Origin: Candidatus Saccharimonadia bacterium
Lineage (GTDB): Bacteria > Patescibacteriota > Saccharimonadia > UBA4664
Direction of reading: 5' to 3'
DNA: 26,738 nucleotides
NCBI GenBank assembly: GCA_036266515.1
Contig: DATAMV010000111.1
Span: forward strand, 1 to 26,738
The notes below the pieces were generated by a model that saw only the letters and a list, made by a program, of their open reading frames with translations, was not told the origin of the DNA and searched no databases. Below are positions 997 through 19,570 of the stretch, piece after piece (position 1 is the first letter of the stretch; every line of letters starts with the position of its first letter). The position numbers and the translations under genes are program-made.

Positions 997-2118
997 TTAT
1001 TGGTGATTTTGGCCTATTCCCAGGGCTCCGGCGAAGTCTTTATATGACTGGTCGAAATTGAGGGACTTACTCCACTCCCAGCCGGCAGAACGCATGCGCT
1101 CATAACGCGCGGGGTCCCCGAGCAATTCCTGGACCGAGGCCGCCAGGGCCGCCGGCGTGTTGGCAGAGGTGACGAGGCCGGTCGTGCCGGCGCGCACGCT
1201 ATCCCTGAGGCCGTCCACATCGTAGACCACCGCGGGCGTACCTTGGCTCGCGGCCTCCGTGACGACCAGTCCCCAACCTTCTTTGACGCTCGTAACCAGC
1301 AGGGCGTGGCACTTTCGCATGAGGGTAATTTTTTCCGCCTCGGTTGTGCGGCCGGCGTACTTGATGCTATCGGCGTGGGGGCTGGCTTTGATGTAACTCA
1401 AAACCTGTTGGCCATAGGCGCCGGTGGCGTCGCCGGAAACAATGAGGCGCAGGTTTGGGATGTAGGCTTTGGCTAGCTCGAAAGCTTTGATTTGGTCGAG
1501 GGTGCGTTTCATGGGCCGGATAGAGCCGTGAGACAACAGGGTAGGCTCGGGGAATTTTGGAACGCTCCCGAGGCTAGCAACGGGAGCGAGCTGGATAGCC
1601 TCGGATATGAGGCTGATGTTGCCCGCGGTGTAGCCGTGGCGCATGAGGTCTTTTTTGGTCGATTCGGAAACCGTTATCACGTGGTTTCCGCGGTTTAGCA
1701 GGCGCAGGTAGAGTGGCTCAAGCAAGTAGCCAATGGTGGAAAATGGCTGCGGTAATTCATAAAACCAGATCCGGCGGCAGAGCATGTGGAAAAACAGCAC
1801 GGTGCGGGTGCGGGCGTAAAAACCGGCGAAAAACGGCATGGTGTTGCACTCGTCGATCACGAGATCGGCGGCGAGCTCGGCACGGTGGCGGCGGAAGTAG
1901 GCGCCGGCCGCGAGGTAGCAGCTGAAGCGGTTGCCGGTGCGGATGACGCGAAAACCCCGGCGCTCGGTCGTGGGGGCGCCGCCGGGAAAGCCGGCCACCA
2001 GAAACGTCACAGTGTGACCGGCGGCGGCTAGACGGGCCGCGAGCTCTTCATTGACCACCTCCGCGCCGCCGGCTTGGGGATGGTCGAGGTCTTTGAAGTT
2101 AAACCAGACAATGTTCAC
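997..2118 (-). CDS. Glycosyltransferase family 4 (GT-B fold)
   Basis: N-terminal HPQAGGAE; C-terminal KEGWGLVVTEAASQGTPAVVYDVDGLRDSV (E-x7-E GT4 motif); GTG start overlaps the upstream stop (GTGA). Confidence 0.93.
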   Translation of the reverse strand: MNIVWFNFKDLDHPQAGGAEVVNEELAARLAAAGHTVTFLVAGFPGGAPTTERRGFRVIRTGNRFSCYLAAGAYFRRHRAELAADLVIDECNTMPFFAGFYARTRTVLFFHMLCRRIWFYELPQPFSTIGYLLEPLYLRLLNRGNHVITVSESTKKDLMRHGYTAGNISLISEAIQLAPVASLGSVPKFPEPTLLSHGSIRPMKRTLDQIKAFELAKAYIPNLRLIVSGDATGAYGQQVLSYIKASPHADSIKYAGRTTEAEKITLMRKCHALLVTSVKEGWGLVVTEAASQGTPAVVYDVDGLRDSVRAGTTGLVTSANTPAALAASVQELLGDPARYERMRSAGWEWSKSLNFDQSYKDFAGALGIGQNHQ

Positions 2119-3107
2119 ACCTCAACCGTTTCGCGCATACGCCGGGGCTCGAAGGCGTTCATGGCCTCGCGACGAGCCACATACAGCGGCCGGTTCATGA
2201 CTTCGGCGTGGATGGTGGCAATGTAGAGCGCCATGAGACCAAGTGATACCAGGATAATGCCGACGAGAAACAGCAGAATGACGGCCAGGATGGCGGGGCC
2301 AGAGAAATTCATGCCCCAAACGTCGTGCATGGCGTATTTTTCGACAAAGATAAACAGGCCGAGCGGGCCGGAAACCAGCATAATGACGCCACCTAGATAC
2401 CCAGCTAATTTCAGCGGGAACAGGCTCATTGAGACCACGGAATTAATGGCCAGGCCGATGAGTTTGAGGTAGCTATAGGCAGCCTCTCCGGCGTGGCGGC
2501 GGGCTGGGGTAAATTCGATGTAGGAGCGGCGGAAGCCGAGCCAGTCGATCAGGCCGCGGGTGATACGGTTGCGCTCGGTGAAGCGGTTGAATTCATTGAT
2601 GACCGCGCGGTCGAGAAGGCGGTAGTCGGTGGCGTTGGCCACGATTTTAACGGTGCTGATGCGATTGATGAGCTTGTAAAACATTTTGCTCGTGACCCGC
2701 TTCATGAGGGGTGCGTGGCGCTGTCCCCCGCCGCGCACACCGATGACTACCTCATACCCGGCCCGCCAGCGGCTGATGAAATCGGGGATGAGGGCCGGCG
2801 GGTGCTGCAAGTCGGCGTCCAAGCAAATAGCGGCCTGGCCACGGGCAGCATGCAGGCCGGCGGTAATGGCGATTTCCTTGCCGAAGTTGCGCACAAGTTC
2901 AATGACGCGCACCCGCGGGTCGGTTTCGGCGAAACCACGAGCCTGGCTCACGGTGTCGTCGGTGCTGCCGTCGTCTACGAAAATAAACTCAAATGACGTG
3001 CTGGCTTCGGCACTGCAAACTTCCCGCAACGACTGAAAGAGCGCGCGGAGGTTTTGGGATTCATTGTGGCAGGGAATGATGACGCTAATGAGTTCTCGAT
3101 TTGGCAT
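2115..3107 (-). CDS. Polyprenyl-phosphate glycosyltransferase, GT2 (GtrB/ArnC/DPM1-like) with two C-terminal TM helices
   Basis: ISVIIPCHNE, FVDDGSTD, RNFGKEIAITAG, DADLQHPP, DYRLLDR, two hydrophobic C-terminal segments. Confidence 0.92.
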   Translation of the reverse strand: MPNRELISVIIPCHNESQNLRALFQSLREVCSAEASTSFEFIFVDDGSTDDTVSQARGFAETDPRVRVIELVRNFGKEIAITAGLHAARGQAAICLDADLQHPPALIPDFISRWRAGYEVVIGVRGGGQRHAPLMKRVTSKMFYKLINRISTVKIVANATDYRLLDRAVINEFNRFTERNRITRGLIDWLGFRRSYIEFTPARRHAGEAAYSYLKLIGLAINSVVSMSLFPLKLAGYLGGVIMLVSGPLGLFIFVEKYAMHDVWGMNFSGPAILAVILLFLVGIILVSLGLMALYIATIHAEVMNRPLYVARREAMNAFEPRRMRETVEV

Positions 3108-7021: not shown

Positions 7022-8520
7022 GGCTGCGGCAGTCCATAAGGTTTGAGCTCGGCAGCCTTGTCTTGAAGCAAGTTCCTAGCCTGGTCGCGGGAGGAGTTCC
7101 ACGACTGCCAATGGGGAGCCGGTGCTTCAACCTCGCTGCGGCGGTAAAGCTCTTCTCCGAGCGTTTGTTTATCGTCGCGGGAGGTGGCCTCGAAAGCCGC
7201 GATGAGTTGCGGGAGGGCGTCGTCGGACAGCCGGGCGAGGTAGGCGCTATCAATCTTGCCGGTAGAGTGGAAGCGGTCGAGGTTGGCGCGGGCAATGAAG
7301 GCGTCGGGGCTTAGCAAATTCATAGCCACCACAAAGGCAATCACCGCAATGAAGGCCGGTAGCGCGAATATGGGCTCTGAGGCGTCTTTGAGGATTTTGT
7401 ACAGGAGGATGAGGAAGATTACGGCCAGCAGCACGGTGAACGCGTGACTGTAAAGGCGCAGGGTCGTGAAACCGTAGGCTTGTTCGTACAAGTACAAGCG
7501 CTTGAAGGCTGAGGCCATGATAAGGATCACTTGCAGCACAAGCGCGCCGGAAAGCAGCCGGAACGCGCGGGTGTGGCCGGCTTTGCCCTTGGCTACAAAT
7601 TGGTCCCCCGCCCATGCCAGCCCAAAGGTTAGGAGCGCTACGGCAATGAGCTCAAAGAAGCCTTTGCGCGCGTATTCGGCGTAGGTAAAGCCTTGGGCCG
7701 AGATATTGTGCTGCCCGCCAAACAGGTAGGCAAACTGGATCACGATGAAGGCAAAGAACAGCACATTGAGGGAGCCGAACAAGATTGAGCTTTCGATGGG
7801 GCCGAGCACGCGGGACTTGGGTGCCGGCGCGGGCGCCTCTTCGGTTTTGCCGGAGCGGATCAGGGTGTAGCTGTAGGCGCCTATGAGACCAAGCGTGGCA
7901 ATGCCGACCAGCACTACGCGCACCAGGGTCTGGGGAGTGATGCTGAAATTAAACAGGGACGTGAGGTAGCGGTGTACCACCAGGTCGGCAGACGAGAACA
8001 GCAGCACGAAGATCACGAGGAACGGTACCGTGAGCGCAATGCCTTTGAGCACCTGGACGGTGGTGGGCTGGTTCTTGGCGGCGCGCGGCAGGGCCACGAG
8101 CTCAGCCAGGGTTTTGCCGAGTGGTGGGCTGAATTTTAGCACCAGCAGCGGCACGCGCAGGTATTGGCCGACGCCGTAGCTCGTTAATTTGGGTCCAAAT
8201 GACACCGCCGCGATCAAGAGCATGAGCGCTACGGTTGCGCCGAGGTTTAGCAGCGTGAGCAGGTCGCTCGTGTGCACGGCCACCATAATGCTAAAGAATG
8301 CCAGAGGTACCAGCAGCCAGAGGACGGCCTTGGCCACCGGCTGGCGCAGGGCAGCGCGGAGTACAAAAAAGCCGCCCATAACGGCGGCCACGTACAACGG
8401 AAAAGACAGCCCAGGCATTTGGTGCCAAAACATCACATCAAACAGGATGCCCAGCATGAGTGACACGCCAGTAATGGCTAGGGCCGCGGTGAATGTTTTT
8501 GGCTGGTCTGAACGTTTCAT
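7018..8520 (-). CDS. DUF4153/DUF4173-family polytopic membrane protein (start likely ATG 8520; ORF extends to 8532)
   Basis: Motifs '[13 protein letters not shown]', '[19 protein letters not shown]', '[10 protein letters not shown]', 'YLARLSDDA'; TG-G-TACAGT lies 10 nt upstream of ATG 8520. Confidence 0.8.
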
Positions 8521-8570
8521 TGTGGCCATCACTGTACCACAATATGAAGAGTTTTTCCAGATGTGGGAGT

Positions 8571-8732
8571 CTACTTTTTCTTCGGCGCCCGGGGCACTTT
8601 CTCCCCTTCTTCGCGGGCCTTGCTCAGGCCCACGGCGATAGCCTGTTTGCGGCTTTCGAATTTACCTTCGTGTTTGTGTTCGTGAAGCATTTTTCCGACT
8701 TCCTCTTGGGCTTTGGGTCCGTATTTAGCCAT
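8571..8732 (-). CDS. Small basic protein, DUF6496-like (53 aa)
   Basis: MAKYGPKAQ...SRKQAIAVGLSKAREEGEKVP signature; SD AAGGAGGT upstream of ATG 8732 (the track's 8756 start is probably too long). Confidence 0.8.
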   Translation of the reverse strand: MAKYGPKAQEEVGKMLHEHKHEGKFESRKQAIAVGLSKAREEGEKVPRAPKKK

Positions 8733-8797
8733 GACGTGCACCTCCTTTATCACCATTTAAGGATGCGGTCGGAGCCCATGTAATTCTTTGGACGAAT

Positions 8798-9313
8798 TTA
8801 TAGAAATACGTCCACGTCGGCCTCGAGCAGAATGAGAGCCCGGCCGGTGGACTGGTAGGCAGTGGCGCCCCGGACCTCGAAGCCAAGGCCGGTGTAATAC
8901 TTTACGAGTCCATCCGGTACCGCTACCGTATCGCCGCGCAAAAGTGACCGCCGGTTTGCGCGGGCTTGCTCTGCCGCAAACCGGAGCATGCGCCGACCTA
9001 CTTGTGGCGGCGCGGAAGCCGGGTCTTTGATGAGTTTGTGGCAATATAGTGCCTTCCCGTCCCGGCCTGCATTCCCCCAGACGCTACTGTGGTCGGACAG
9101 GCAAATGGATGCAACGATCGTGCCACTCGGGCCACGCAGGACGTGACACCTCCCCGCTTCAACGGCCCGCTGGAGGTCTTTGTACGCCATATCGACAGCG
9201 TTCCACGTGCGGGTTCCGGACCGGGCCAGCGAATAGTCATTGGCCGCATCGAACAACCGTTTTAGCTCGGGAAAATCAGCAGCCTGGGCCGGCTGGATTG
9301 CTAGGCCGGCCAT
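8798..9313 (-). CDS. GNAT-family N-acetyltransferase
   Basis: Motif A-like 'QVGRRMLRFA', 'LVKYYTGLGF'; start overlaps the kinase stop region. Confidence 0.8.
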   Translation of the reverse strand: MAGLAIQPAQAADFPELKRLFDAANDYSLARSGTRTWNAVDMAYKDLQRAVEAGRCHVLRGPSGTIVASICLSDHSSVWGNAGRDGKALYCHKLIKDPASAPPQVGRRMLRFAAEQARANRRSLLRGDTVAVPDGLVKYYTGLGFEVRGATAYQSTGRALILLEADVDVFL

Positions 9314-9353
9314 AGTGCTTTGAGGCCGTTGGCGGCGGCGATATCGGCTAGAG
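9301..9353. repeat. Copy 1 of a diverged 53-bp direct repeat (3' end of the kinase gene)
   Basis: 41/53 identical to 10239-10291 by manual alignment; encodes LADIAAANGLKALWPA*. Confidence 0.85.
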
Positions 9354-10239
9354 TTTTGTCAAAGGCGGGTTTGCCCATTTTTAGCAGGTTGTCCGCGAAG
9401 CCGAGGCGCAGGGTGATGCGCTCGGTATTTTTGGGAGGGGCTTTGAGCTCGAAGAAAAGTGACAGCCGCACGCACATATAAATGAGCGCTGGGAATAACT
9501 TGGCTCCTTCTTCAGCCGTAAGGGTTCGGTGTTTGGTGTACCCCTGCAGGAATCGGCAGCACAGTTCAAAAGTGTCATCGCGGCCAAAGTAGCTCATGAT
9601 CATTGCGCCGGCAATGTCAAAAATAAACTCGCCGTAGCCGGCGTGCTCAGGGTCAATAAAACCGAGCAGTTGACCGTCTTTGGCATACAAATTATCCGGG
9701 CACACATCATGGAATACAAAGCCCTCGGGCAGGTCGTGCACTTCCTCGATGTAGGCCCGGTATTTCTCATACTTTGCCCGGGTTGGCTCGTCGAGCTGTT
9801 CCAGGAGCCCGAGACAGCGTTCGCGGCTATCCCAGGCTGGAGCAAGCTCGGCCTCGCTAATTTGCGTGATATGGAGTTTCGCGACTAATTCGCCCATTGC
9901 CTCAGCCATAGCGGGGTTAACGGCCGGCTCCGTGAGGGTCTCAAATGGAAATACAAGAATTTTTTGGCCATCGATTTCCGTAACCACCTGGCCCATATTG
10001 TTTTTGAGCGGCGCGATGGTTTGAAGACCGGCGCGCTCAATATTCGCGTAAAACTTTTCCTGGCGGGGAAGATGCTTGTACTGCAAGGGCGGAATAATTT
10101 TCATAAAGTAGGGTCCGGCCGCTGTTTTGACCGCCAGGTTCGTATTGCCGGAGCCTTTGCCCACTGGCTCGATTGAAATGATGGATGCGAGGCCCGAGTA
10201 AAAATTCCGTAGCTTTTGCGGTAGGCCGGCGAGGTCCAT
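9301..10239 (-). CDS. APH/type II homoserine kinase (ThrB)-like phosphotransferase
   Basis: GSGNTN P-loop, YFMK, catalytic loop FHDVCPDN, GFIDPE, DIA; ATG 10239 overlaps the upstream TAA (TAATG). Alternative GTG start at 10251. Confidence 0.82.
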   Translation of the reverse strand: MDLAGLPQKLRNFYSGLASIISIEPVGKGSGNTNLAVKTAAGPYFMKIIPPLQYKHLPRQEKFYANIERAGLQTIAPLKNNMGQVVTEIDGQKILVFPFETLTEPAVNPAMAEAMGELVAKLHITQISEAELAPAWDSRERCLGLLEQLDEPTRAKYEKYRAYIEEVHDLPEGFVFHDVCPDNLYAKDGQLLGFIDPEHAGYGEFIFDIAGAMIMSYFGRDDTFELCCRFLQGYTKHRTLTAEEGAKLFPALIYMCVRLSLFFELKAPPKNTERITLRLGFADNLLKMGKPAFDKTLADIAAANGLKALWPA

Positions 10240-10291
10240 TAGGCCAGCCACAGGCTCTTGAGGCCGTTGGTGGTGGCGATATCCGCCAGGG
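10239..10291. repeat. Copy 2 of the diverged 53-bp direct repeat (3' end of the amidohydrolase gene)
   Basis: Encodes LADIATTNGLKSLWLA*; 12/16 aa identical to the kinase C-terminus. Confidence 0.85.
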
Positions 10292-11231
10292 CATCAAGGT
10301 CGTAGTAGCGCTGGCCCTCCAGCAGGAAGCGCAGTTCGGTCCACATGTCGCCGTCAACGAACGGTTTGTAGAGGTCCTGGATATTATCGGTCCCGATACA
10401 CACGGTAACCCCGGCTGCCATCATCTCTTTTACTGGGGTCATGGCGTTGTGAATGGGGCCGATAACGTCATGATCCATGAGAGCAACGTGGCTATTGTCG
10501 ATCCAGCCGTCCGGACAAGCCACCACCATGACGCCGGCGTCCACCAGCTTTTTATATAATTCAAAGCGATACTCACGGGCTTGGGCCCCCACTGAAATAC
10601 AATGGACGGCTGCTACCTTGCCCTGGTAGCCGTGTTCGATGGTTTTCTTAATGAGTAGTTCGGTGTCGCGCTGGTCGGGCACATTGTATTGGTCCACGTG
10701 GACATGCAGCGGCTTGCCACCGTTTTTCTTGGCTGCTTCAAACAGAATGTCTAAGTGTTCGGCCTCGTGGCCGGCGTCTTTTTCCGGCAAGCCACCGATG
10801 ATGTCCACAAACTCAGCACCAATTTCGAACCATTTGCGGGCCTCGGGCTCTATGACGCCTTTAACCACCTGGTTTATAAATTTGATCTGAATTTTGTCGC
10901 CATAATTCTCACGTAGGCGCTTGGCGGCTTGGATGGCCTTGTCTTCAATGACAGGGTCTACGTCGATAAACGTACCGATGGCCTGAACACCCTGCTCGAT
11001 TTGCTTCTTGAGGGCGTATTCCATATTGGCGTAAATATCATCCACCGTGGCAGCTTTTTTGTACTTGTCTGGGTAGTCCCACTTCTGCTGGAGCGATCCG
11101 TTGACCAGATGGAAGTTCTCTTCATTCAAAATGAATGCGCGGTCGATGTGCGCATGGGCGTTGACCCAACCGCCTTTGGCCTTCACTTTATCTAGGACCA
11201 GTTGCTTGGGGTTGAAATCGTGGCTGTTCAT
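10239..11231 (-). CDS. Metal-dependent amidohydrolase, cytosine-deaminase (CodA/AtzC)-like
   Basis: HxH (NAHAHID), HVHVDQ, AVHCIS, GTDNIQD metal/catalytic motifs; terminal 'TTNGLKSL' helix; 330 aa. Confidence 0.85.
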   Translation of the reverse strand: MNSHDFNPKQLVLDKVKAKGGWVNAHAHIDRAFILNEENFHLVNGSLQQKWDYPDKYKKAATVDDIYANMEYALKKQIEQGVQAIGTFIDVDPVIEDKAIQAAKRLRENYGDKIQIKFINQVVKGVIEPEARKWFEIGAEFVDIIGGLPEKDAGHEAEHLDILFEAAKKNGGKPLHVHVDQYNVPDQRDTELLIKKTIEHGYQGKVAAVHCISVGAQAREYRFELYKKLVDAGVMVVACPDGWIDNSHVALMDHDVIGPIHNAMTPVKEMMAAGVTVCIGTDNIQDLYKPFVDGDMWTELRFLLEGQRYYDLDALADIATTNGLKSLWLA

Positions 11232-11232
11232 C

Positions 11233-12033
11233 TTAGGTTTTCTCCAAGGTGTTAATAAGGCAGTGGATGCCGCCGCCGGACTTATTAAACTCTCCTACTT
11301 CCACTTCGATAACTTTGCGGCCAAGTTTTTCGAGCTTTTTGCGAAAAGTGGGATTGCCGGCTTGTAATATCACTGTATCACCCGAGACGAGCGAGTTGGC
11401 GGAAAAGCCCTCGGCTTCGGTGCGGCTCATCTCATGCAGGTTGGGAATAAGCTTCTTGAGCAGGCCCTGAGAATTTTCGCTAAAAGCCGGCGGGTAGTAA
11501 AAGGCAGTATCGGCGTCGAGCGGCAGAAAGCAGGTGTCGAGGTGGTAAAACAGCGGGTCAACGAGACGCACCGGCACCACGTCGATGCCGAGGTTGTCGG
11601 CCAGCTCTTCGCATGAAGCGACATTGGCGCGAAAGCCCGTGCCAACGATGAGCATCTTGCCAACAAAAAGGGCGTCGCCGCCCTCAAAGTTGAAGATCTT
11701 GGTGAGTTCGCGCGGTTCAAAACCATGCTCGCGGAACCAGGCCCGGTAGTAGCGCGTTTCGGGTTTGCGTTCTGGGTAGCGGAAGTTGGCCATGAGCACG
11801 GTACCACCTTCGACAATTCCTTGGTCGGTGGCGAACACCATGTCTGGGACGTCGGGCTTTTGCTCGATGATCTCGACCTTAACCCCCTGGCTCTCGAGGG
11901 CCGCCACCAGGCCCTCCCATTGCTGCATGGCAAGGGCCTGATCTACGGCGTGGGGCTTCATGTGGGGGTTAATGATGTACTCGACGTCGAAATACGTTGG
12001 CCGGCACATCAGGACCCGCTTGACGCGCTGCAC
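11233..12033 (-). CDS. Pentein/amidinotransferase-superfamily hydrolase (DDAH / ArgZ N-domain-like)
   Basis: LMCRPTYFDVEYIINPHM, PDMVFATD, FEGGDA, FYHLDTC (catalytic His), GGGIHC (catalytic Cys). Confidence 0.9.
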   Translation of the reverse strand: MQRVKRVLMCRPTYFDVEYIINPHMKPHAVDQALAMQQWEGLVAALESQGVKVEIIEQKPDVPDMVFATDQGIVEGGTVLMANFRYPERKPETRYYRAWFREHGFEPRELTKIFNFEGGDALFVGKMLIVGTGFRANVASCEELADNLGIDVVPVRLVDPLFYHLDTCFLPLDADTAFYYPPAFSENSQGLLKKLIPNLHEMSRTEAEGFSANSLVSGDTVILQAGNPTFRKKLEKLGRKVIEVEVGEFNKSGGGIHCLINTLEKT

Positions 12034-12039
12034 TGGTGG

Positions 12040-13680
12040 TTAGACCTTGGCCTTTACGAGTTTGGCGACCACTTCCTGGGCAACCGCCAGGCTGGTGATA
12101 AGCGGAGTGTCGGTGGCTACGGCCTTTTCGCGGATGACTTGACCGTCGGTCTTTTCTTTCTCAACAGTTTCTTCGCGCTCGGTTTTGGTCGGGATGTTGA
12201 CGATGATGTCGAAGCGCTTGGCGTCGAGCATGTCCGAGAGGTTCGGCTTAAGCTCTGGTGTGGAGATCTTGTTGACCAGGATGGCTTCGATGCCATTGGA
12301 GAGCAGGAACTTGTGGGTCTTGTACGTGGCGTAGAGCTGGTAGCCCATGGCAGCCAGGTGCTTGACCTGGGGCAGGAACTTGAGCTTCATGTCGCGGCCA
12401 CCGATAGCGAGCAGGGCGGTGCGCTGGCGGCGCTGGGCCATGCGCATCTGGGCGGTGTAGTGTTCGATGAAGCCGGCCGAGGCGTTCTGGTTGAAGTTGT
12501 CGTTGCGGGTATCCATGAAGGTAGCCAGCTTCTCGTTGAAGATGGTGTTTGGTGTTTCGACCGCGACGGCTTCGATGTGGCCCTTGTAGAGCTTGAGGGT
12601 GACGGTGCCGGTGATTTTCTCGTTGGCTTTTTCGATGTAGGCGTAGAGGTCAGCCATGAGCGGCTCGAACCAGAGCGCGCCGTAGCAGAGGTAGGCCCAT
12701 TTTTCATCCACGATGGATTTGAACTCGTTTTCGAGCCGAGTCGAGGTGTAGCGCTCGAGAGCTTTGTGGCCGGTGATGATGGTTTCGGCGGCCGGGGCTT
12801 CATAGAGGCCGCGGACCTTGAGGCCGATCACGCGGTCTTCGAGCAGGTGAACGATACCCACGGCGTGCTTGGCGGCGCGCTCGTTGAGCTGCTCGATCAT
12901 GGCGACTAGGCCCATCTCCTTGCCGTCGACGGCCACGGGCAGGCCTTTTTCGAATTCAAGCGTGATGTATTCGGGCTTGTCGAGTGCCTCCTCGGGAGTG
13001 CGGCAGACTTGCAGGATTTTCTCGAGCGGCGGAATGAGGGCGGGATTTTCAATTTCGCCGCCTTCGCCGGTCACGCCCCACATATTGTCGTCGTAGGAGT
13101 AGGGCTTGTCTTTGGTTTGCTTCACTGGGATACCGTGAGCCAGGGCGTATTCAATCTGCTCGTCGCGGCCCATAGACCATTCGCGGACCGGAGCGATGAT
13201 TTTGATGTCGGGGTTGAGGGCGAGGGCTGAGCCTTCCATGCGGATCTGGTCGTTGCCCTTACCCGTGGCACCGTGAGCAATGGCGTCGGCGCCTTCTTGC
13301 GCCGCAATCTTGACGGCCCACTTGGCGAGCAGCGGACGGCCGAGGGGCGTCGAGAGGTAGTAGCGGCCCTGGTACATGCCGTTGGCCTTGATGCTCTTGG
13401 CCAGGTATTCGTTGGCAAATTCTTCTTTGGCGTCAACGACGATGGCCTTGACCGCGCCGAGCTTGAGGGCCTTTTCGCGGATGGCCTCAAGGTCGTCGGT
13501 TTGCTGGCCGATGTCGATGGTGAGGGCGATGACCTCGGCTTTGTAAACTTCCTGAATCCACTTCACCATTGTGGAGGTGTCGAGGCCCCCGGAGTAAAGC
13601 AAGACGACTTTTTTGACTTCGCCTTTCTTACCTTCGTAACTGGCGACTTTGACGTACTCGCTCTTGTGTTCCATGCCCAT
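12040..13680 (-). CDS. argG: Argininosuccinate synthase fused to a C-terminal MGS-like (CarB allosteric-type) domain
   Basis: LYSGGLDTS, HGATGKGNDQIR, YSYDDNMWG, EDRVIGLK.RGLYEAP; residues ~421-546 read ALLAI..D.K...ATYKT...LVNK...IIVNIP...DGQVIRE.A (MGS-like). SD GGAGGT 8 nt upstream. Confidence 0.93.
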   Translation of the reverse strand: MGMEHKSEYVKVASYEGKKGEVKKVVLLYSGGLDTSTMVKWIQEVYKAEVIALTIDIGQQTDDLEAIREKALKLGAVKAIVVDAKEEFANEYLAKSIKANGMYQGRYYLSTPLGRPLLAKWAVKIAAQEGADAIAHGATGKGNDQIRMEGSALALNPDIKIIAPVREWSMGRDEQIEYALAHGIPVKQTKDKPYSYDDNMWGVTGEGGEIENPALIPPLEKILQVCRTPEEALDKPEYITLEFEKGLPVAVDGKEMGLVAMIEQLNERAAKHAVGIVHLLEDRVIGLKVRGLYEAPAAETIITGHKALERYTSTRLENEFKSIVDEKWAYLCYGALWFEPLMADLYAYIEKANEKITGTVTLKLYKGHIEAVAVETPNTIFNEKLATFMDTRNDNFNQNASAGFIEHYTAQMRMAQRRQRTALLAIGGRDMKLKFLPQVKHLAAMGYQLYATYKTHKFLLSNGIEAILVNKISTPELKPNLSDMLDAKRFDIIVNIPTKTEREETVEKEKTDGQVIREKAVATDTPLITSLAVAQEVVAKLVKAKV

Positions 13681-13724
13681 GGGGGTCTACCTCCGTTCAT
13701 TATTCGGACACATTATCGCCAGCT

Positions 13725-13751
13725 ATTATAGCACAAAATTGGAAAAATCAA
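13725..13751 (-). promoter_or_regulatory. Extended -10 promoter of the argG operon (TGTG-C-TATAAT; TTGATT at short spacing)
   Basis: Minus strand: TTGATT-15 nt-TATAAT with TGTG immediately upstream; -10 at 13725-13730. Confidence 0.65.
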
Positions 13752-13802
13752 GTGTTTTTTTCGAAAAATGGCCTAATTTAGAGCATTTTGAGGTGCTTTT
13801 TG

Positions 13803-14951
13803 CTATTTTTTCTTAAACCTGGTGCGGCTACCATGATGGCTGCCCTGAATGTTCTTTGGCCGAGGCATAAGGCTCTTAACGTCAATGGCCAGCTCGGGAT
13901 TCCAAATAACGGCGGTGGCGGCCTGCACCATGTCGGCGCCGGCGTCACGGTAGGCTTGGTAGTCAGCTGGATTCATGACGCCGCCGATGCCAATGATGGC
14001 AAAACGAAGGCCCAGCCGCTCGCGCAACTCGGCGAGGCGGCGGGTCATGTCGAGGCCGGCCCACTTAATGCCGGCGCCGCATAGGCCGGTACGGTCGCGG
14101 CCGGGCAGGGCCGGCTCGCCGTCCGGTGTCACGACCGAGCCCGGGATGGTGTTGACCGCGGCGACGGCGGCAACGAGCGGGGCGACGGCCCGCATGATGG
14201 TTTCGAGTAGCTCCTGCTGATCCGGTGCGTAGTAGCCAAGCTTTATGATCAGCGGGGTTTTGCCGGCGGCTGTCCGGCAGCGGCGCACGATGTCCGTGAC
14301 GGCGCCGGGCGAGTAGCACAGCACGCCCTCGCCGCTCACGTTGGGGCACGAAAGGTTGATCTCGATTGCCGGGGCGCCGGCCTGGACCGCGAGCTTTACG
14401 GCTTCGGCGAAGTCATTGTAATAATCCTCAGTGGAGAAGCCGGGCTGAATGGTGCCTTGTACCGACATGATTACCATTTGGCCGCGCTTCACGGCGGCAA
14501 GGCACCGGGCGTAGTCCGGCATCCAAAACTCGGGCCCGCGCGACGGCACGGCAAATGAGTTGGTAATAGTGAGCCGGCTGAGGTCGGGGTCGTCTCCCAC
14601 GGCGTGCGCCACTAGCGGCTTTTTGGCTTGATCGAGGGTAAGGTCACCGTCCACATCCACGGCCAATACATTAGGAAACGGGTTAACTTCAAAGGCGACG
14701 GTGCGCTGGGTTTTGTAGGTAACGAGGTCAAAGCCTTTATTAAGAGCGGCGATCACGTATTTGGCGTTGAGTAGCGGTCCGGCGGCTATGCCAAACGGCG
14801 AAAACATCGGCCGGCCAAAGAAATTAAACTGCGGCCGCCCTTTGTCGTGGTATGGAATAGGCAGGGCGAATTCGCCGAACGGGCCATGGTCGAAATTCTC
14901 AGCATAGGTTTTGGCGGGATCGTAGATGGGTTGTTGGCCTGAACTGAGCAT
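13803..14951 (-). CDS. pyrD: Dihydroorotate dehydrogenase-like FMN oxidoreductase (class 1-type, divergent)
   Basis: GIAAGP, TYKT, ITNS, EINLSCPN (catalytic Cys), IIKL, VNT, GLCG, IIGIGGV, VQAATA; next to pyrF/pyrE. Could instead be a dihydropyrimidine dehydrogenase-like enzyme. Confidence 0.72.
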   Translation of the reverse strand: MLSSGQQPIYDPAKTYAENFDHGPFGEFALPIPYHDKGRPQFNFFGRPMFSPFGIAAGPLLNAKYVIAALNKGFDLVTYKTQRTVAFEVNPFPNVLAVDVDGDLTLDQAKKPLVAHAVGDDPDLSRLTITNSFAVPSRGPEFWMPDYARCLAAVKRGQMVIMSVQGTIQPGFSTEDYYNDFAEAVKLAVQAGAPAIEINLSCPNVSGEGVLCYSPGAVTDIVRRCRTAAGKTPLIIKLGYYAPDQQELLETIMRAVAPLVAAVAAVNTIPGSVVTPDGEPALPGRDRTGLCGAGIKWAGLDMTRRLAELRERLGLRFAIIGIGGVMNPADYQAYRDAGADMVQAATAVIWNPELAIDVKSLMPRPKNIQGSHHGSRTRFKKK

Positions 14952-14995
14952 GGTAGTTTATAGGATAGCATAAGCTGGGAAAGGCACCTGTAATC

Positions 14996-15817
14996 GTGAA
15001 CTTTGCGGCCAAATTAGCCAAGTCCGTTGAGCGCTCAAACTCACTGCTGTGTGTGGGGCTTGACCCCGGCGTGGCTAAGCTCCCGAAGAGCATGCCCGAC
15101 CAATTTGAATTTAATAAAGCCATTATTGAAGCCACGCATGATCTGGCGAGTTCATACAAACCGAATGCGGCGTTTTATGAGGCGCGGGGTGCTGACGGCA
15201 TCGAGGCACTCAAGCGCACATGCGACTACCTGCGCGAAACCTACCCCGAAATCCCGATCGTATTTGATGCCAAGCGCGGCGACATCGGCAACACGAATGC
15301 CGGCTACGCTGAGTACGTGTTTGAATACCTGGGCGCCGATGCCGTGACCGTGGCGCCCTACATGGGCAGCGAGTCGCTTGAGAAATTCTTGGAATGGGAA
15401 GGTAAAGGCATTATTGTACTCTGCCGCACCTCAAATCTCGGGGCCGGTGAGTTTCAGGACCTCATGGTCGGCGGCGAGCCGTTGTATATGCATGTGGCCA
15501 AACGCGTGAGTTCGGCTTGGAACAGCCGCGGCAACTGCGCGCTGGTGGTGGGTGCAACCTATCCGAAGGAGCTGGCCGAGGTGCGCGCGGTGGTCGGCGA
15601 CGCCATGCCGATTCTGATCCCGGGCATCGGCGCACAAGGCGGCGAGGTGGCAGCCAGCGTGGAAGCCGGCCTAGGCGGCGGCCACGCACCAATTATGATT
15701 GCTACCTCTCGGGCCATTATTTTTGCATCCGACGGCGAGGATTTTGCCGAGGCCGCCCGGACTGAGGCCCAGAAATTGCGCGATGAAATTAACCGCTACC
15801 GGAAGGAGACCGCATGA
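14996..15817 (+). CDS. pyrF: Orotidine-5'-phosphate decarboxylase
   Basis: LCVGLDP, YKPNAAFYE, DAKRGDIGNT (DxKxxDIxxT), LCRTSN, VVGAT, LIPGIGAQGG, SRAII. Confidence 0.95.
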   Translation: MNFAAKLAKSVERSNSLLCVGLDPGVAKLPKSMPDQFEFNKAIIEATHDLASSYKPNAAFYEARGADGIEALKRTCDYLRETYPEIPIVFDAKRGDIGNTNAGYAEYVFEYLGADAVTVAPYMGSESLEKFLEWEGKGIIVLCRTSNLGAGEFQDLMVGGEPLYMHVAKRVSSAWNSRGNCALVVGATYPKELAEVRAVVGDAMPILIPGIGAQGGEVAASVEAGLGGGHAPIMIATSRAIIFASDGEDFAEAARTEAQKLRDEINRYRKETA

Positions 15818-16464
15818 CTACGGGTGATGAAATAAAAGAGCTCCTCGTAAAGAGTGGCGGCTGGCTTGATAATGACCATTTTGTGGGCACCAACGGCAAC
15901 CACATGAGCACCTATATTAATAAGGACGCACTTTACCCGCACACCGAATACGCCTCCAGGCTCGGTGAAGCCATGGCCGCGGCCATGAAGGACTGGGACC
16001 CGGAGGTGGTGGTAAGCCCGGCGCTTGGTGGGATCGTGTTGACGCAATGGTCGGCCTACCACGCCACCCAGATGCTGGGACGTGAGGTGCTGGCGGTGTA
16101 TGCCGAGAAGGTGGAGGGGCCGGAAAAGAAGTTTGCCTTCACGCGCGGGTACGACAAGCTGGTGGCCGGCAAGCGCGCCGTGGTAGTGGAAGACAACCTC
16201 ACCACCGGCGTCTCGGTGCGCAAGGTGGTGGAGCTGGTGCGTGAAACCGGCGGCGAGGTGGTGGGCGTGGTGGCCATGCTCAACCGCGGCGGTGTGAGCC
16301 GTGAAGACGTGGGCAACCCGCCGCACTTTGAGGCCATTGTGCAGGCTGACCTTAAATCGTGGCCGGCCGCCGAATGCGAACTGTGCGCTAAGGGCGTGCC
16401 AGTTAACACCAAAATCGGCAAAGGCAAAAAGTTCCTGGAAGAACAAGCGGCCAAGCAGCAATGA
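15814..16464 (+). CDS. pyrE: Orotate phosphoribosyltransferase
   Basis: PRPP-binding VVVEDNLTTGVSV, SPALGGI, YAEK; ATGA overlap with pyrF. Confidence 0.9.
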   Translation: MTTGDEIKELLVKSGGWLDNDHFVGTNGNHMSTYINKDALYPHTEYASRLGEAMAAAMKDWDPEVVVSPALGGIVLTQWSAYHATQMLGREVLAVYAEKVEGPEKKFAFTRGYDKLVAGKRAVVVEDNLTTGVSVRKVVELVRETGGEVVGVVAMLNRGGVSREDVGNPPHFEAIVQADLKSWPAAECELCAKGVPVNTKIGKGKKFLEEQAAKQQ

Positions 16465-17096: not shown

Positions 17097-18392
17097 TTAA
17101 GCGGTTTTGGGTGCTGGGCGGGCACCGATGTCGATGCGGTACTGCATGCCGTCGAATTGAATGCGCTTGACCGCATTGTAGGCATTAGCGCGGGCCTCGG
17201 TGAGAGTTTTGCCCACGGCCGAAACGCCGAGCACGCGCCCACCATTGGTCACCAGCCGGCCATCGTCGCCGCGCTTGGTGCCCGCGTGGAACACCACCAC
17301 GCCCGGAAGTTCTTCGGCGTCTTCTACGCCCGTGATCGGCAGGCCCTTTGCGTACTTGCCGGGGTAGCCGCCGGAGGCCACAATCACGCATACGGCCGAT
17401 TCGTCGCTCCACTTCATGTCGGTCTCGGCGAGCGTGCCGTCTACGCAGGCGTTTAAGATCTCGAGCAGGTCAGATTCCAGGAGCCGGAGATACGACTGGG
17501 GTTCGGGATCGCCGAAGCGCGCGTTGAATTCCACCACTTTAATGTCTTGGCCGTCGACCATCAGGCCGGGATATAGCATGCCCTTAAACGGCGCGTCGGC
17601 TTCGGCCAGGCCGGCCAGCACCGGCTCCACGATCGTGGTGCGGATTTGCTCAATCATGGCTGGCGTTACCCAAGGCACGGGGGCGTAGGTGCCCATGCCG
17701 CCGGTGTTGGGCCCGACGTCGCCGGTGCCGATGGGCTTGTGGTCTTGGGACACCGGCAGAATCACCGCGGTTTTGCCGTCGCACAGTACCTGGACAGAAA
17801 TTTCTTGGCCTTGCATAAATTCTTCGACCACGACCGAGCTGCCGGATTCGCCGAAGATTTTTTCGCCCATGATCTCGTTGAGTGCTCTCATGGCCTCATC
17901 ACGCGTTTGGCACACGTACACGCCCTTGCCGAGCGCCAGTCCGTTGGCCTTAATTACGAGCGGCAGCGCGTGGTCACGTATGTACGCTTCGGCGGCGGCT
18001 AGGTCGGTGAACGTTTGGTATCCGGCGGTGGGGATGTGGTGCTTGGCCATGAGGTCCTTGGCAAAAACCTTGGATGATTCAATGCGGGCAGCGGCCTGAG
18101 TGGGGCCAAAGGCGCGTAGGCCGGCAGCCTGGCACGCGTCCACGAGGCCGGCGGCTAGCACGTCGTCGGAGGCAGCCACCACCAGGCCAATGTCGTTGGC
18201 TTGGGCAAATTCCACGACGGCTGCTTTGTCGAAGGGGTTGAGGTCGGCGGTGGTAGCTACCTGAGCGGTGCCGCCGTTGCTAGGCGCGATGTAAAGTTTG
18301 CCAATGTTTGGTGATTTGGCGAGCATCCAGGCGAGCGTGTGTTCGCGGCCGCCGCCGGCGCCGATAATAAGAACGTTCTGCTTCCCTGCCAC
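17097..18392 (-). CDS. purD: Phosphoribosylamine-glycine ligase
   Basis: IIGAGGGREH, APSNGG, IESSKVFAK, IKANGLALGKGV, DHK...GPNTGGMG, EFNARFGDPE, GGYPG, VFHAGT, TNGGRVL; SD GGAGG before GTG. Confidence 0.96.
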   Translation of the reverse strand: MAGKQNVLIIGAGGGREHTLAWMLAKSPNIGKLYIAPSNGGTAQVATTADLNPFDKAAVVEFAQANDIGLVVAASDDVLAAGLVDACQAAGLRAFGPTQAAARIESSKVFAKDLMAKHHIPTAGYQTFTDLAAAEAYIRDHALPLVIKANGLALGKGVYVCQTRDEAMRALNEIMGEKIFGESGSSVVVEEFMQGQEISVQVLCDGKTAVILPVSQDHKPIGTGDVGPNTGGMGTYAPVPWVTPAMIEQIRTTIVEPVLAGLAEADAPFKGMLYPGLMVDGQDIKVVEFNARFGDPEPQSYLRLLESDLLEILNACVDGTLAETDMKWSDESAVCVIVASGGYPGKYAKGLPITGVEDAEELPGVVVFHAGTKRGDDGRLVTNGGRVLGVSAVGKTLTEARANAYNAVKRIQFDGMQYRIDIGARPAPKTA

Positions 18393-18418
18393 ACCAGCCT
18401 CCGTGATAATCTTGTTGT

Positions 18419-19471
18419 ATGCATCGTATCATCCCCAGCCGCAGTCAGATACGGCGGTGGGTTAAATTTGGCGGCGTGGCTTTTGTGTTTGCCGGTAGTG
18501 TTTTGGCGGTAGTTTTGGCCTGGCCGCATCCCGTGGTGGGTATTGTAGACAACCGCTCCTATCCGGTACAGTTGCGCACGAATTATGCCAAGGCGGTGCA
18601 GTCGGTGCGCGATTTTCAGCGGCGCCAAGCCATGCTCCACGCGCGCGTGGCCAGCGACCATCAACTAAGGCTTTTGCTTTCGAATGTGCAGCTCGATGCG
18701 GCCAGCGGACATTATGCCACCGCCGAAGCCGACATCCGCGAACTGCGGCAGGCCCTTACCAACTGGAATTTTGAACTCAACGGCGGCAGCGGCGGGGCTA
18801 CGGCGCAGGCGCAATTTAGTATCCAGCTGCCAATTTTGCTCTACCACTATCCCCCACCCAATTTTGAAGAGCAGTTGGCGCACCTCGAGCAGGCCGGCTA
18901 TACCACGATTGACTTAGATCAGGCGCTCGACGGCCTGCATGGTGGCGCTCTCCCGGCCAAGCCGGTGGTAATTACATTCGATGACGGATTTGCCGCGCAG
19001 ATGCAGGCATTCGAGCTCCTGAAACGCCATCACATGAAAGCCACGTTCTACATTATTGACGGCGGCGAAGCCAGCAAATGGTGCATCGGCGCGGGCCGGC
19101 GCTACGGCGATCCACTGCAGCCGCCCGGCGGGTGTGGCGATGCCTACCTGAGTTGGGACCAAGTGCGGACATTGGATAAAAGCGGACTCATTACCATCGG
19201 CGGCCACACTGTTAACCACCGCAATTTAGCCACGCTTTCCGCCGCGGACCAGGAGTTTGAGATTGTACAAGGCAAGGAGCTGCTCGAGGCTGAATTGGGG
19301 CACTCCGTGCACGACTTTGCCTACCCATACGGCGCCTACAACGCCGAAAGCATCAAACTTGCACAGGAGGCGGGCTACACCACGGCCGTGACGACCATGG
19401 AGGGTACAGTCCAAACCGACACATCGATTTATACGCTGCGGCGCGTGCGTGACGCGCTACTGTTGCCTTAG
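18419..19471 (+). CDS. Membrane-anchored polysaccharide deacetylase (NodB/IcaB-PgaB-like, CE4)
   Basis: N-terminal TM, helical stalk, then VITFDDG, ATFYII, GHTVNH, FAYPYG, AVTT, LRRV. Confidence 0.9.
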   Translation: MHRIIPSRSQIRRWVKFGGVAFVFAGSVLAVVLAWPHPVVGIVDNRSYPVQLRTNYAKAVQSVRDFQRRQAMLHARVASDHQLRLLLSNVQLDAASGHYATAEADIRELRQALTNWNFELNGGSGGATAQAQFSIQLPILLYHYPPPNFEEQLAHLEQAGYTTIDLDQALDGLHGGALPAKPVVITFDDGFAAQMQAFELLKRHHMKATFYIIDGGEASKWCIGAGRRYGDPLQPPGGCGDAYLSWDQVRTLDKSGLITIGGHTVNHRNLATLSAADQEFEIVQGKELLEAELGHSVHDFAYPYGAYNAESIKLAQEAGYTTAVTTMEGTVQTDTSIYTLRRVRDALLLP

Positions 19472-19570
19472 CTATTTGCTCTTGCGGCGGCGCAAGAAGC
19501 GATCGGCTGTAAATCCGCCGGCCAGGACGATGAGGCCCAGAACCATATACGGCCATCTTTCTTGATACAT
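19472..19570 (-). CDS. Putative 32-aa single-pass membrane micro-protein
   Basis: Below the ORF-track cutoff. ATG 19570 to TAG 19472 reads MYQERWPYMVLGLIVLAGGFTADRFLRRRKSK and fills most of the gap between two + strand genes. Confidence 0.55.
   Translation of the reverse strand: MYQERWPYMVLGLIVLAGGFTADRFLRRRKSK

Follow-up and report, generated by a model that had tools for sequence, protein, structure and literature searches.

An argininosuccinate synthase fused to a carbamoyl-phosphate synthetase-type MGS-like domain, a candidate entry enzyme for pyrimidine ring synthesis in Patescibacteria

The window analyzed in this work is a 26,738-nt stretch of contig DATAMV010000111.1 (GenBank assembly GCA_036266515.1) from a Candidatus Saccharimonadia bacterium. 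One of its genes encodes an argininosuccinate synthase (ArgG) followed in frame by an MGS-like domain of the type found in carbamoyl-phosphate synthetase (CPS). The fusion protein is named ArgG-MGS here (P0001). In public gene calls the protein starts two residues later and is 544 aa long, compared with the 546-aa open reading frame (ORF) used in this study. The genes downstream encode a pentein, an amidohydrolase, a kinase and a 171-aa ORF, with spacings of 6 nt and 1 nt followed by overlaps; a pyrD-like gene, pyrF and a pyrE-like gene lie on the other side (Table 1). The domain architecture, the pocket residues of the tail, the gene clustering and the patterns of co-occurrence and absence were observed directly in the sequences. 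They lead us to favor, at somewhat better than even probability, the view that in these Patescibacteria ArgG-MGS spends ATP on the first, committed step of a pyrimidine ring synthesis that departs from the canonical one.

Table 1. Features of the ArgG-MGS locus (positions in the window).
Feature	Position	Strand	Remarks
ArgG-MGS (P0001)	12040..13680	minus	546 aa; argininosuccinate synthase core and CPS-type MGS-like domain
ArgG N-terminal HUP/PP-loop domain	13126..13611	minus	residues 24-185; SGGLDTS, TGKGNDQIR; PF00764 Arginosuc_synth, E 6e-66
ArgG C-terminal domain	12439..13101	minus	residues 194-414; YSYDDN, EDRxxGxKxRGxYE; PF20979 Arginosuc_syn_C, E 4e-63
MGS-like domain	12094..12375	minus	residues 436-529; ATYKT, VNK, NIP, KTDGQ; PF02142, E 2.6e-13
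Likely own promoter and ribosome-binding site of ArgG-MGS	13690..13751	minus	sequence reading
Pentein, ArgZ/DDAH-like	11233..12033	minus	266 aa; begins 6 nt past the ArgG-MGS stop; Pfam DDAH_eukar and ADI
PRK06886-family amidohydrolase	10239..11231	minus	330 aa; NF005365, 436 bits (cut-off 340)
APH/ThrB-like kinase	9301..10251	minus	overlaps the amidohydrolase stop by 13 nt; Pfam APH, E 5e-20
171-aa protein	8798..9313	minus	overlaps the kinase stop by 13 nt; no Pfam/NCBIfam match
Divergent dihydroorotate-dehydrogenase-like protein (pyrD-like)	13803..14951	minus	382 aa; PF01180, 70 bits; only DHO_dh in the genome
pyrF, orotidine 5'-phosphate (OMP) decarboxylase subfamily 2	14996..15817	plus	TIGR02127, 239 bits (cut-off 111)
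pyrE-like orotate phosphoribosyltransferase	15814..16464	plus	TIGR01367, 109.5 bits, below the cut-off of 150; Pfam Pribosyltran

ArgG-MGS exceeds both argG equivalog cut-offs in NCBIfam (TIGR00032, 448 bits against 268; PRK00509/NF001770, 498.6 bits against 334). Residues 24-415 align end to end with Thermus thermophilus ArgG (1j1z) at approximately 52% identity (E 2e-107). An earlier note on this DNA had read an apparently intact active site from the motifs TGKGNDQIR (residues 139-147), YSYDDN (194-199), EDR (281-283) and GLYE (291-294), and every one of them was found at these positions. SGGLDTS, TGKGNDQxR, YSxDxN and ExRxxGxKxRGxYE are invariant in an alignment of 54 fusion proteins and match the T. 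thermophilus enzyme. An AlphaFold model of ArgG-MGS made with the 54 fusion sequences as input has a mean predicted local distance difference test (pLDDT) score of 81.9; the core and the domain at residues 420-546 are confident and the linker between them (381-418) is poorly defined. When the model was used as a Foldseek query, ArgG and ArtA structures came out on top and CPS1 and CarB next (E ~5e-9). The in-frame joining of ArgG to a CarB-type tail, the main claim of the earlier note, is therefore real by Pfam, NCBIfam and Foldseek alike. Compared with the short bacterial/eukaryotic ArgG/ASS1 type (EC 6.3.4.5; T. thermophilus 1J1Z, human 2NZ2), ArgG-MGS has the same fold (TM-score by target 0.85-0.90), and the PP-loop and the citrulline and aspartate motifs are likewise conserved. 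It differs in an additional 130-aa MGS-like domain behind the C-terminal arm and in the location of its gene, in pyr clusters and not in arg operons, and most of its carriers lack an ArgH to use its product. By its sequence ArgG-MGS is predicted to be a true argininosuccinate synthase, which makes argininosuccinate from citrulline, aspartate and ATP.

The tail scores 50.3 bits against the MGS family in Pfam (gathering score 24.1) and aligns to positions 927-1049 of the NCBIfam CarB model TIGR01369 (E 2e-11). Whether judged by family, sequence or fold, the proteins that match it best are CPS proteins, which bears out the assignment to the CPS large-subunit C-terminal domain. By sequence, the human CPS1 domain 2yvq (E 3e-4) is a closer match than E. 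coli CarB (E 0.45). The pLDDT of the MGS-like domain is 77 to 91. The CarB allosteric domain (E. coli residues 937-1073) binds uridine monophosphate (UMP), inosine monophosphate (IMP) and ornithine, and the CPS1 domain (2YVQ) binds N-acetylglutamate. We take K954, T974, T977, K993 and N1015 to be the phosphate and ribose contacts of UMP/IMP in E. coli CarB (1CE8). Residues were mapped onto E. coli CarB (from NC_000913) through a MAFFT alignment with 113 fusion tails, the direct match to CarB being weak. All 113 tails have the residues equivalent to T974, T977, K993 and D1025, whereas N1015 is kept in 111 and I1029 in 108; the T974, T977, K993, N1015 and D1025 equivalents are common to the fusion tail and the allosteric domain of the CPS large subunit. 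The two differ in their setting, the fusion tail being joined to ArgG and not to an ATP-grasp synthetase, and in several positions. Every one of the 113 tails has Lys in place of G976 and Arg in place of G952. The column aligned with K954 is variable (52 K, 48 Q and 5 M; Met in the tail from the window), with an invariant Lys (K432) one residue on. The fusion tail also carries an acidic insert of 8-9 residues (501-509) with low pLDDT. Thus the claim that the effector-phosphate positions are kept held for the T/T/K/N/D pocket and the VNK motif, but 'D.K' holds only approximately because of the variable K954 column; the replacement of Gly by Lys in ATYKT (residues 451-455) is found in all the aligned tails. 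These results support retention in ArgG-MGS of the residues with which the CarB pocket holds the phosphate and ribose of its effector, apart from the variable K954 column. The ligand is probably anionic and phosphate-bearing, and UMP would be a reasonable guess from the conserved residues. With two further basic residues invariant (Lys at G976, Arg at G952) and CPS1 as the better match, anionic effectors other than UMP/IMP are possible.

A search with the tail only returned 326 protein clusters, nearly all of 542-546 aa with the same three domains; the named ones are from Candidatus Saccharimonadales. A pattern scan with one genome per species found the fusion in at least 117 species genomes. 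The carriers are Saccharibacteria, Levy-, Roizman- and Gottesmanbacteria (Microgenomates) and one Parcubacterium; many of the fusion-carrying metagenome-assembled genomes (MAGs) bear doubtful 'Gammaproteobacteria' labels. An assembly or frameshift artefact was ruled out by the recurrence of the 542-546-aa architecture in this many clusters and species.

Gene neighborhoods were counted at 61 fusion loci with at least 4 kb of sequence downstream. A PRK06886-like amidohydrolase is encoded near the fusion at 56 loci (within 3 kb at 53). The pyrD-like gene and pyrF are each found at 40 loci, the pentein at 31 and pyrE at 13, and pyrB, pyrC and an argH-like gene are found at 7, 6 and 4 loci, respectively. 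In the window itself the gene is located within a pyrD-like/pyrF/pyrE cluster, in agreement with the suggestion that the fusion suits a pyrimidine role more than arginine synthesis. The same note would have given up that suggestion had the fusion been common in ordinary arg operons with argH; as counted above, argH is rare at these loci, and 19 of 32 fully searched fusion genomes lack ArgH altogether. A pyrimidine role of ArgG-MGS is well supported by this comparative genomics. The comparisons further suggest argininosuccinate as the actual precursor of the pyrimidine, a part for ArgG that the earlier note does not name.

The pentein is full-length alignable to the ArgZ (Sll1336) domain, its best solved match (E 4.5e-51). 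It scores below the NCBIfam cut-offs for DDAH (Mycobacterium tuberculosis type; 261 bits against 300) and Arg_dihydro (207.5 against 450). In 37 copies from the clusters, the Cys of GGGIHC is invariant and Asp occupies the ArgZ Asn71 position throughout, as in the ADI and DDAH active sites. The catalytic Cys is thus shared with DDAH and with the arginine dihydrolase domain of ArgZ/AgrE, but the partner pentein is a single-domain protein. The amidohydrolase is the only Amidohydro_1 (PF01979) protein found in the genome of the window. The nearest solved structures are the cytosine deaminase 4r7w (E 1.4e-17) and AtzC 2qt3 (E 5e-17). Residues H26, H28, H178, D180, H210 and D282 are conserved, and with them the metal-ligand set of AtzC and the cytosine deaminase CodA (HxH, His, His and Asp); the partner enzyme is approximately 100 aa shorter, and 51 of 61 copies have Gln at the position of CodA Glu217. 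AtzC (N-isopropylammelide isopropylaminohydrolase) hydrolyzes an alkylamine off a ring guanidine-type carbon. This alkylamine release is the chemistry that would be required to free ornithine.

The 32 fusion genomes were searched in full and compared with 251 genomes sampled evenly across the class. All 32 have pyrF, as against 77 in the class sample, and 31 have a PRK06886-like amidohydrolase. pyrB was detected in five, the same five that have pyrC, and 27 lack both. An ornithine carbamoyltransferase (OTC)-like gene is found in nine fusion genomes, and 18 are without a carbamoyltransferase of any kind. ArgH is present in 13. For the pentein, 19 genomes have an orthologue, four a distant paralogue and nine no orthologue (two of these with very weak matches). 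ArgH occurs in seven of the nine genomes without a pentein match, and the pentein-bearing genomes are mostly without it; this pattern agrees with a pentein making citrulline out of imported arginine in genomes unable to synthesize arginine. Within the class sample, PRK06886 exceeds the cut-off in three genomes only, G000 (the genome of the window), G126 and G176, the very fusion genomes of the sample in which pyrB and pyrC are missing. The six class-sample genomes with a canonical tail-less ArgG lack it; in G058 and G180 the canonical argG adjoins an argH-like lyase gene. G126 is 100% complete and G176 is a single 898-kb contig (99% complete). Both have ArgG-MGS, the pentein, the amidohydrolase, the pyrD-like gene and pyrF, and pyrB, argF, pyrC and carB were not found in either. 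Their only fumarate-lyase-family (Lyase_1) protein is PurB and their only amidohydrolase is PRK06886. Therefore in these two genomes argininosuccinate is without a known consumer and dihydroorotate without a known source.

G000 is a 1.15-Mb MAG (83% complete), in which neither pyrB nor pyrC was found. Its sole carbamoyltransferase is the OTC of a carA-carB-argF operon (TIGR00658, 392 bits; 147 bits against the pyrB model, cut-off 237). It has a single argG, the fusion, and a single DHO_dh gene, the one in the cluster. An argH-like gene on another contig scores 277.6 bits (cut-off 279.5). The ArgH-like proteins at L007:1465-2670 (G000 contig C131) and L033:4020-5216 are approximately 400 aa long, end about 60 residues short of the argH model and score at its cut-off or slightly under it. 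Three segments of the window (1168-2993, 13871-16441 and 17121-19472) are syntenic with same-genus genomes at 66-71% DNA identity, and this synteny of the flanks rules out a mis-binned contig. The five-gene module between them (8798-13680) had no counterpart in six same-genus genomes (G047-G052) or in 52 genomes of the order, and no argG was found in the other genomes of the order (52 searched, six of the same genus). The same-genus relatives carry a canonical pyrC-like dihydroorotase gene adjoining the pyrD-like gene, a true pyrB (278-287 bits, cut-off 237) and no argG. As the relatives have pyrC beside the pyrD-like gene, the ArgG-MGS module occupies the place of pyrC. The nearest ArgG-MGS relatives of the G000 copy (approximately 83% tail identity) are from other Saccharimonadia. 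The module looks like a lateral acquisition that displaced pyrC and perhaps pyrB.

Argininosuccinate is aspartate whose amino group already bears the future C2 and N3 of the pyrimidine ring. It cyclizes to a six-membered anhydride, which is dihydroorotate with ornithine at C2. We infer the reactions of the amidohydrolase and the pentein and the identity of the effector as follows. ArgG-MGS would supply argininosuccinate, and the PRK06886 amidohydrolase would convert it to dihydroorotate and ornithine, via the cyclic anhydride or via carbamoyl-aspartate; this activity is proposed because of the kinship to AtzC and cytosine deaminase and the conserved metal ligands. Dihydroorotate would then be carried to UMP by the products of the pyrD-like gene, pyrE and pyrF. 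The ArgZ/DDAH-like pentein would turn imported arginine into citrulline in genomes unable to make arginine. In G000, CarAB and ArgF could also re-carbamoylate the freed ornithine, which would act as a catalytic carrier. The MGS tail would most likely impose end-product (UMP-type) feedback on the committed step, as it does on CarB. The proposed route shares with the canonical CarAB-PyrB-PyrC entry the dihydroorotate product, the aspartate backbone, the PyrD, PyrE and PyrF steps and an MGS sensor domain on the first step. The difference lies in the source of the ureido group, which would be citrulline (passed on via an adenylated intermediate and argininosuccinate) instead of carbamoyl phosphate. 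The wider proposal is that many Patescibacteria make the pyrimidine ring without CPS, aspartate carbamoyltransferase and dihydroorotase, by means of citrulline that a pentein derives from host arginine, an MGS-regulated ArgG and an AtzC-like amidohydrolase, with G000 recycling its ornithine. We regard this as possible, at a little under even probability.

Several observations weigh against the proposed route. The near-complete genome G172 is without the PRK06886 amidohydrolase and without ArgH, and neither our model nor its variant with swapped roles (below) accounts for the fate of argininosuccinate there. At its fusion locus (L028, C31:6000-25000), ArgG-MGS and the pentein are immediate neighbors of pyrB, carB, pyrC, the pyrD-like gene and pyrF. 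Five fusion genomes carry both routes. In the class sample, 37 of 40 genomes with an OMPdecase-family match but no pyrB also have no argG. pyrF without pyrB is thus common in the class without the fusion, as are partial pyr pathways, and the argument that the module fills a gap is therefore weak by itself. We set this argument aside as a stand-alone line of evidence in view of the 37 fusion-free counterexamples; with gap-filling weak, the case rests on clustering, linkage and co-occurrence. Related genomes are also non-independent samples. G000 being incomplete, its pyrB could sit in unassembled DNA, and its argH-like gene means that ArgG could also serve arginine synthesis there. Argininosuccinate is not a substrate of any solved relative of the amidohydrolase. 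As for the regulatory tail, the K954-equivalent column is not conserved, and the tail is at least as similar to the N-acetylglutamate-binding CPS1 domain as to E. coli CarB, so the effector may not be UMP.

The fusion could instead be an ordinary arginine-pathway ArgG in which a CarB-type allosteric domain balances the use of aspartate, citrulline and carbamoyl phosphate between arginine and pyrimidine synthesis. Argininosuccinate would then have ArgH as its only outlet, and the functions of the amidohydrolase and pentein would be unrelated to it. The equivalog-level score of the core, the carAB-argF and argH-like genes of G000 and the presence of ArgH in 13 of the 32 fusion genomes are in its favor. 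It is difficult to reconcile with the 19 carriers without ArgH and the 18 without a carbamoyltransferase, and with G126 and G176, where PurB is the sole fumarate-lyase-family protein. It also leaves unexplained an amidohydrolase encoded within 3 kb of the fusion at 53 of 61 loci and found only with the fusion in the class sample, and the canonical ArgG of the same class, which adjoins argH in G058 and G180, has no tail. We consider this explanation unlikely. A nitrogen-handling cycle or an arginine catabolic unit, with the pyr linkage incidental, is much less probable still. The cyanobacterial ornithine-ammonia cycle consists of OTC, ArgG, ArgH and an ArgZ-type arginine dihydrolase; the ArgZ dihydrolase domain is the best solved match of the pentein, and G000 has carAB, argF, argG and an argH-like gene. 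Most carriers, however, are without OTC, ArgH or both, and the pentein has an invariant Asp in place of ArgZ Asn71 and falls far below the Arg_dihydro cut-off. Such a cycle has no role for the nearly universal amidohydrolase, and pyrF is found in all 32 carriers.

Another arrangement keeps the pyrimidine role and swaps the partners, the pentein hydrolyzing argininosuccinate to ornithine and N-carbamoyl-aspartate and PRK06886 acting as a non-orthologous dihydroorotase. This was close to our first working model (pentein on argininosuccinate, PRK06886 as a dihydroorotase analogue), which was downgraded because the nine fusion genomes without a pentein orthologue keep the amidohydrolase. The swapped arrangement suits G172 better than our preferred route does, since in that genome ArgG-MGS and the pentein occur together with a canonical pyrC and PRK06886 is missing. 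It also agrees with PRK06886 being the sole amidohydrolase, and pyrC missing, in G000, G126 and G176, and with the cleavage of C-N bonds at guanidino carbons by penteins (as established for ADI, DDAH, amidinotransferases and ArgZ). Nonetheless, five of the nine genomes without an orthologous pentein are also without pyrB and would have no source of carbamoyl-aspartate, and five genomes keep PRK06886 together with pyrC. Not one class-sample genome has PRK06886 but no fusion, even though pyrF occurs without pyrB in 37 of them, and the closest relatives of the pentein act on free arginine or methylarginine. We judge the swapped roles improbable, slightly more so than the ordinary arginine-pathway ArgG. 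The preferred reading is the one with the amidohydrolase acting on argininosuccinate and the pentein supplying citrulline.

A promoter-like element precedes ArgG-MGS, with TTGATT (13751-13746), a 15-nt spacer and TGcTATAAT (13733-13725), and GGAGG is found at 13694-13690, 9 nt upstream of the ATG at 13680. A strict sigma-70 consensus scan of 8500-15100 found no site; it missed this element because of the 15-nt spacer. The kinase, located between the amidohydrolase and the 171-aa ORF, was absent from the other 80 loci of the neighborhood survey and seems to be specific to the G000 copy of the module. Homologs of the 171-aa ORF (30-42% identity) follow the amidohydrolase at eight other fusion loci; the protein has a GNAT-like look, judged by eye. 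The pyrD-like gene is syntenic with the same-genus genomes. This protein and its relatives (L014, L015, L029-L032) score 65-88 bits to PF01180 and have an N-terminal extension of approximately 125 aa. The divergent pyrD-like gene is the only DHO_dh homolog of these Saccharimonadia, and it is kept with the canonical route and with the ArgG-MGS module alike.

A second MGS fusion was seen in Gottesmanbacteria/Microgenomates pyr clusters (L093:11316-12734 and L072:5561-7054, both on the plus strand). Here the domain is attached to an AsnRS/AsnA-like class-II aminoacyl-tRNA-synthetase core without the anticodon domain, and the gene is located between a PRK06886-like amidohydrolase gene and the pyrD-like gene. 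Its MGS domain is 39-42% identical to the ArgG tail. The protein might be an ATP-dependent enzyme that activates the aspartyl beta-carboxyl group under the same sensor. The CPS allosteric module thus appears to be reused as a portable sensor in pyr clusters, on ArgG and on an AsnA-like protein.

The six steps that lead from carbamoyl phosphate to UMP are generally regarded as near-universal. In metabolic reconstructions, Patescibacteria without pyrB and pyrC are scored as pyrimidine auxotrophs or 'incomplete'. A full-text literature search found nothing on the ArgG-MGS fusion, on the function of PRK06886 or on a route from argininosuccinate to dihydroorotate. In a recent preprint on Saccharimonadia, argG and argH are taken simply as arginine synthesis. 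The parts of the fusion are known and their arrangement is new. The pathway, should it prove real, would be a novel type of entry to pyrimidine synthesis, the second for the de novo route and hitherto unrecognized. Three poorly annotated families (ArgG-MGS, PRK06886 and the ArgZ-like pentein) would then gain functions. Hundreds of candidate-phyla genomes would be pyrimidine-prototrophic, given arginine or citrulline from the host, and the reliance of these episymbionts on arginine from their hosts would gain a new meaning.

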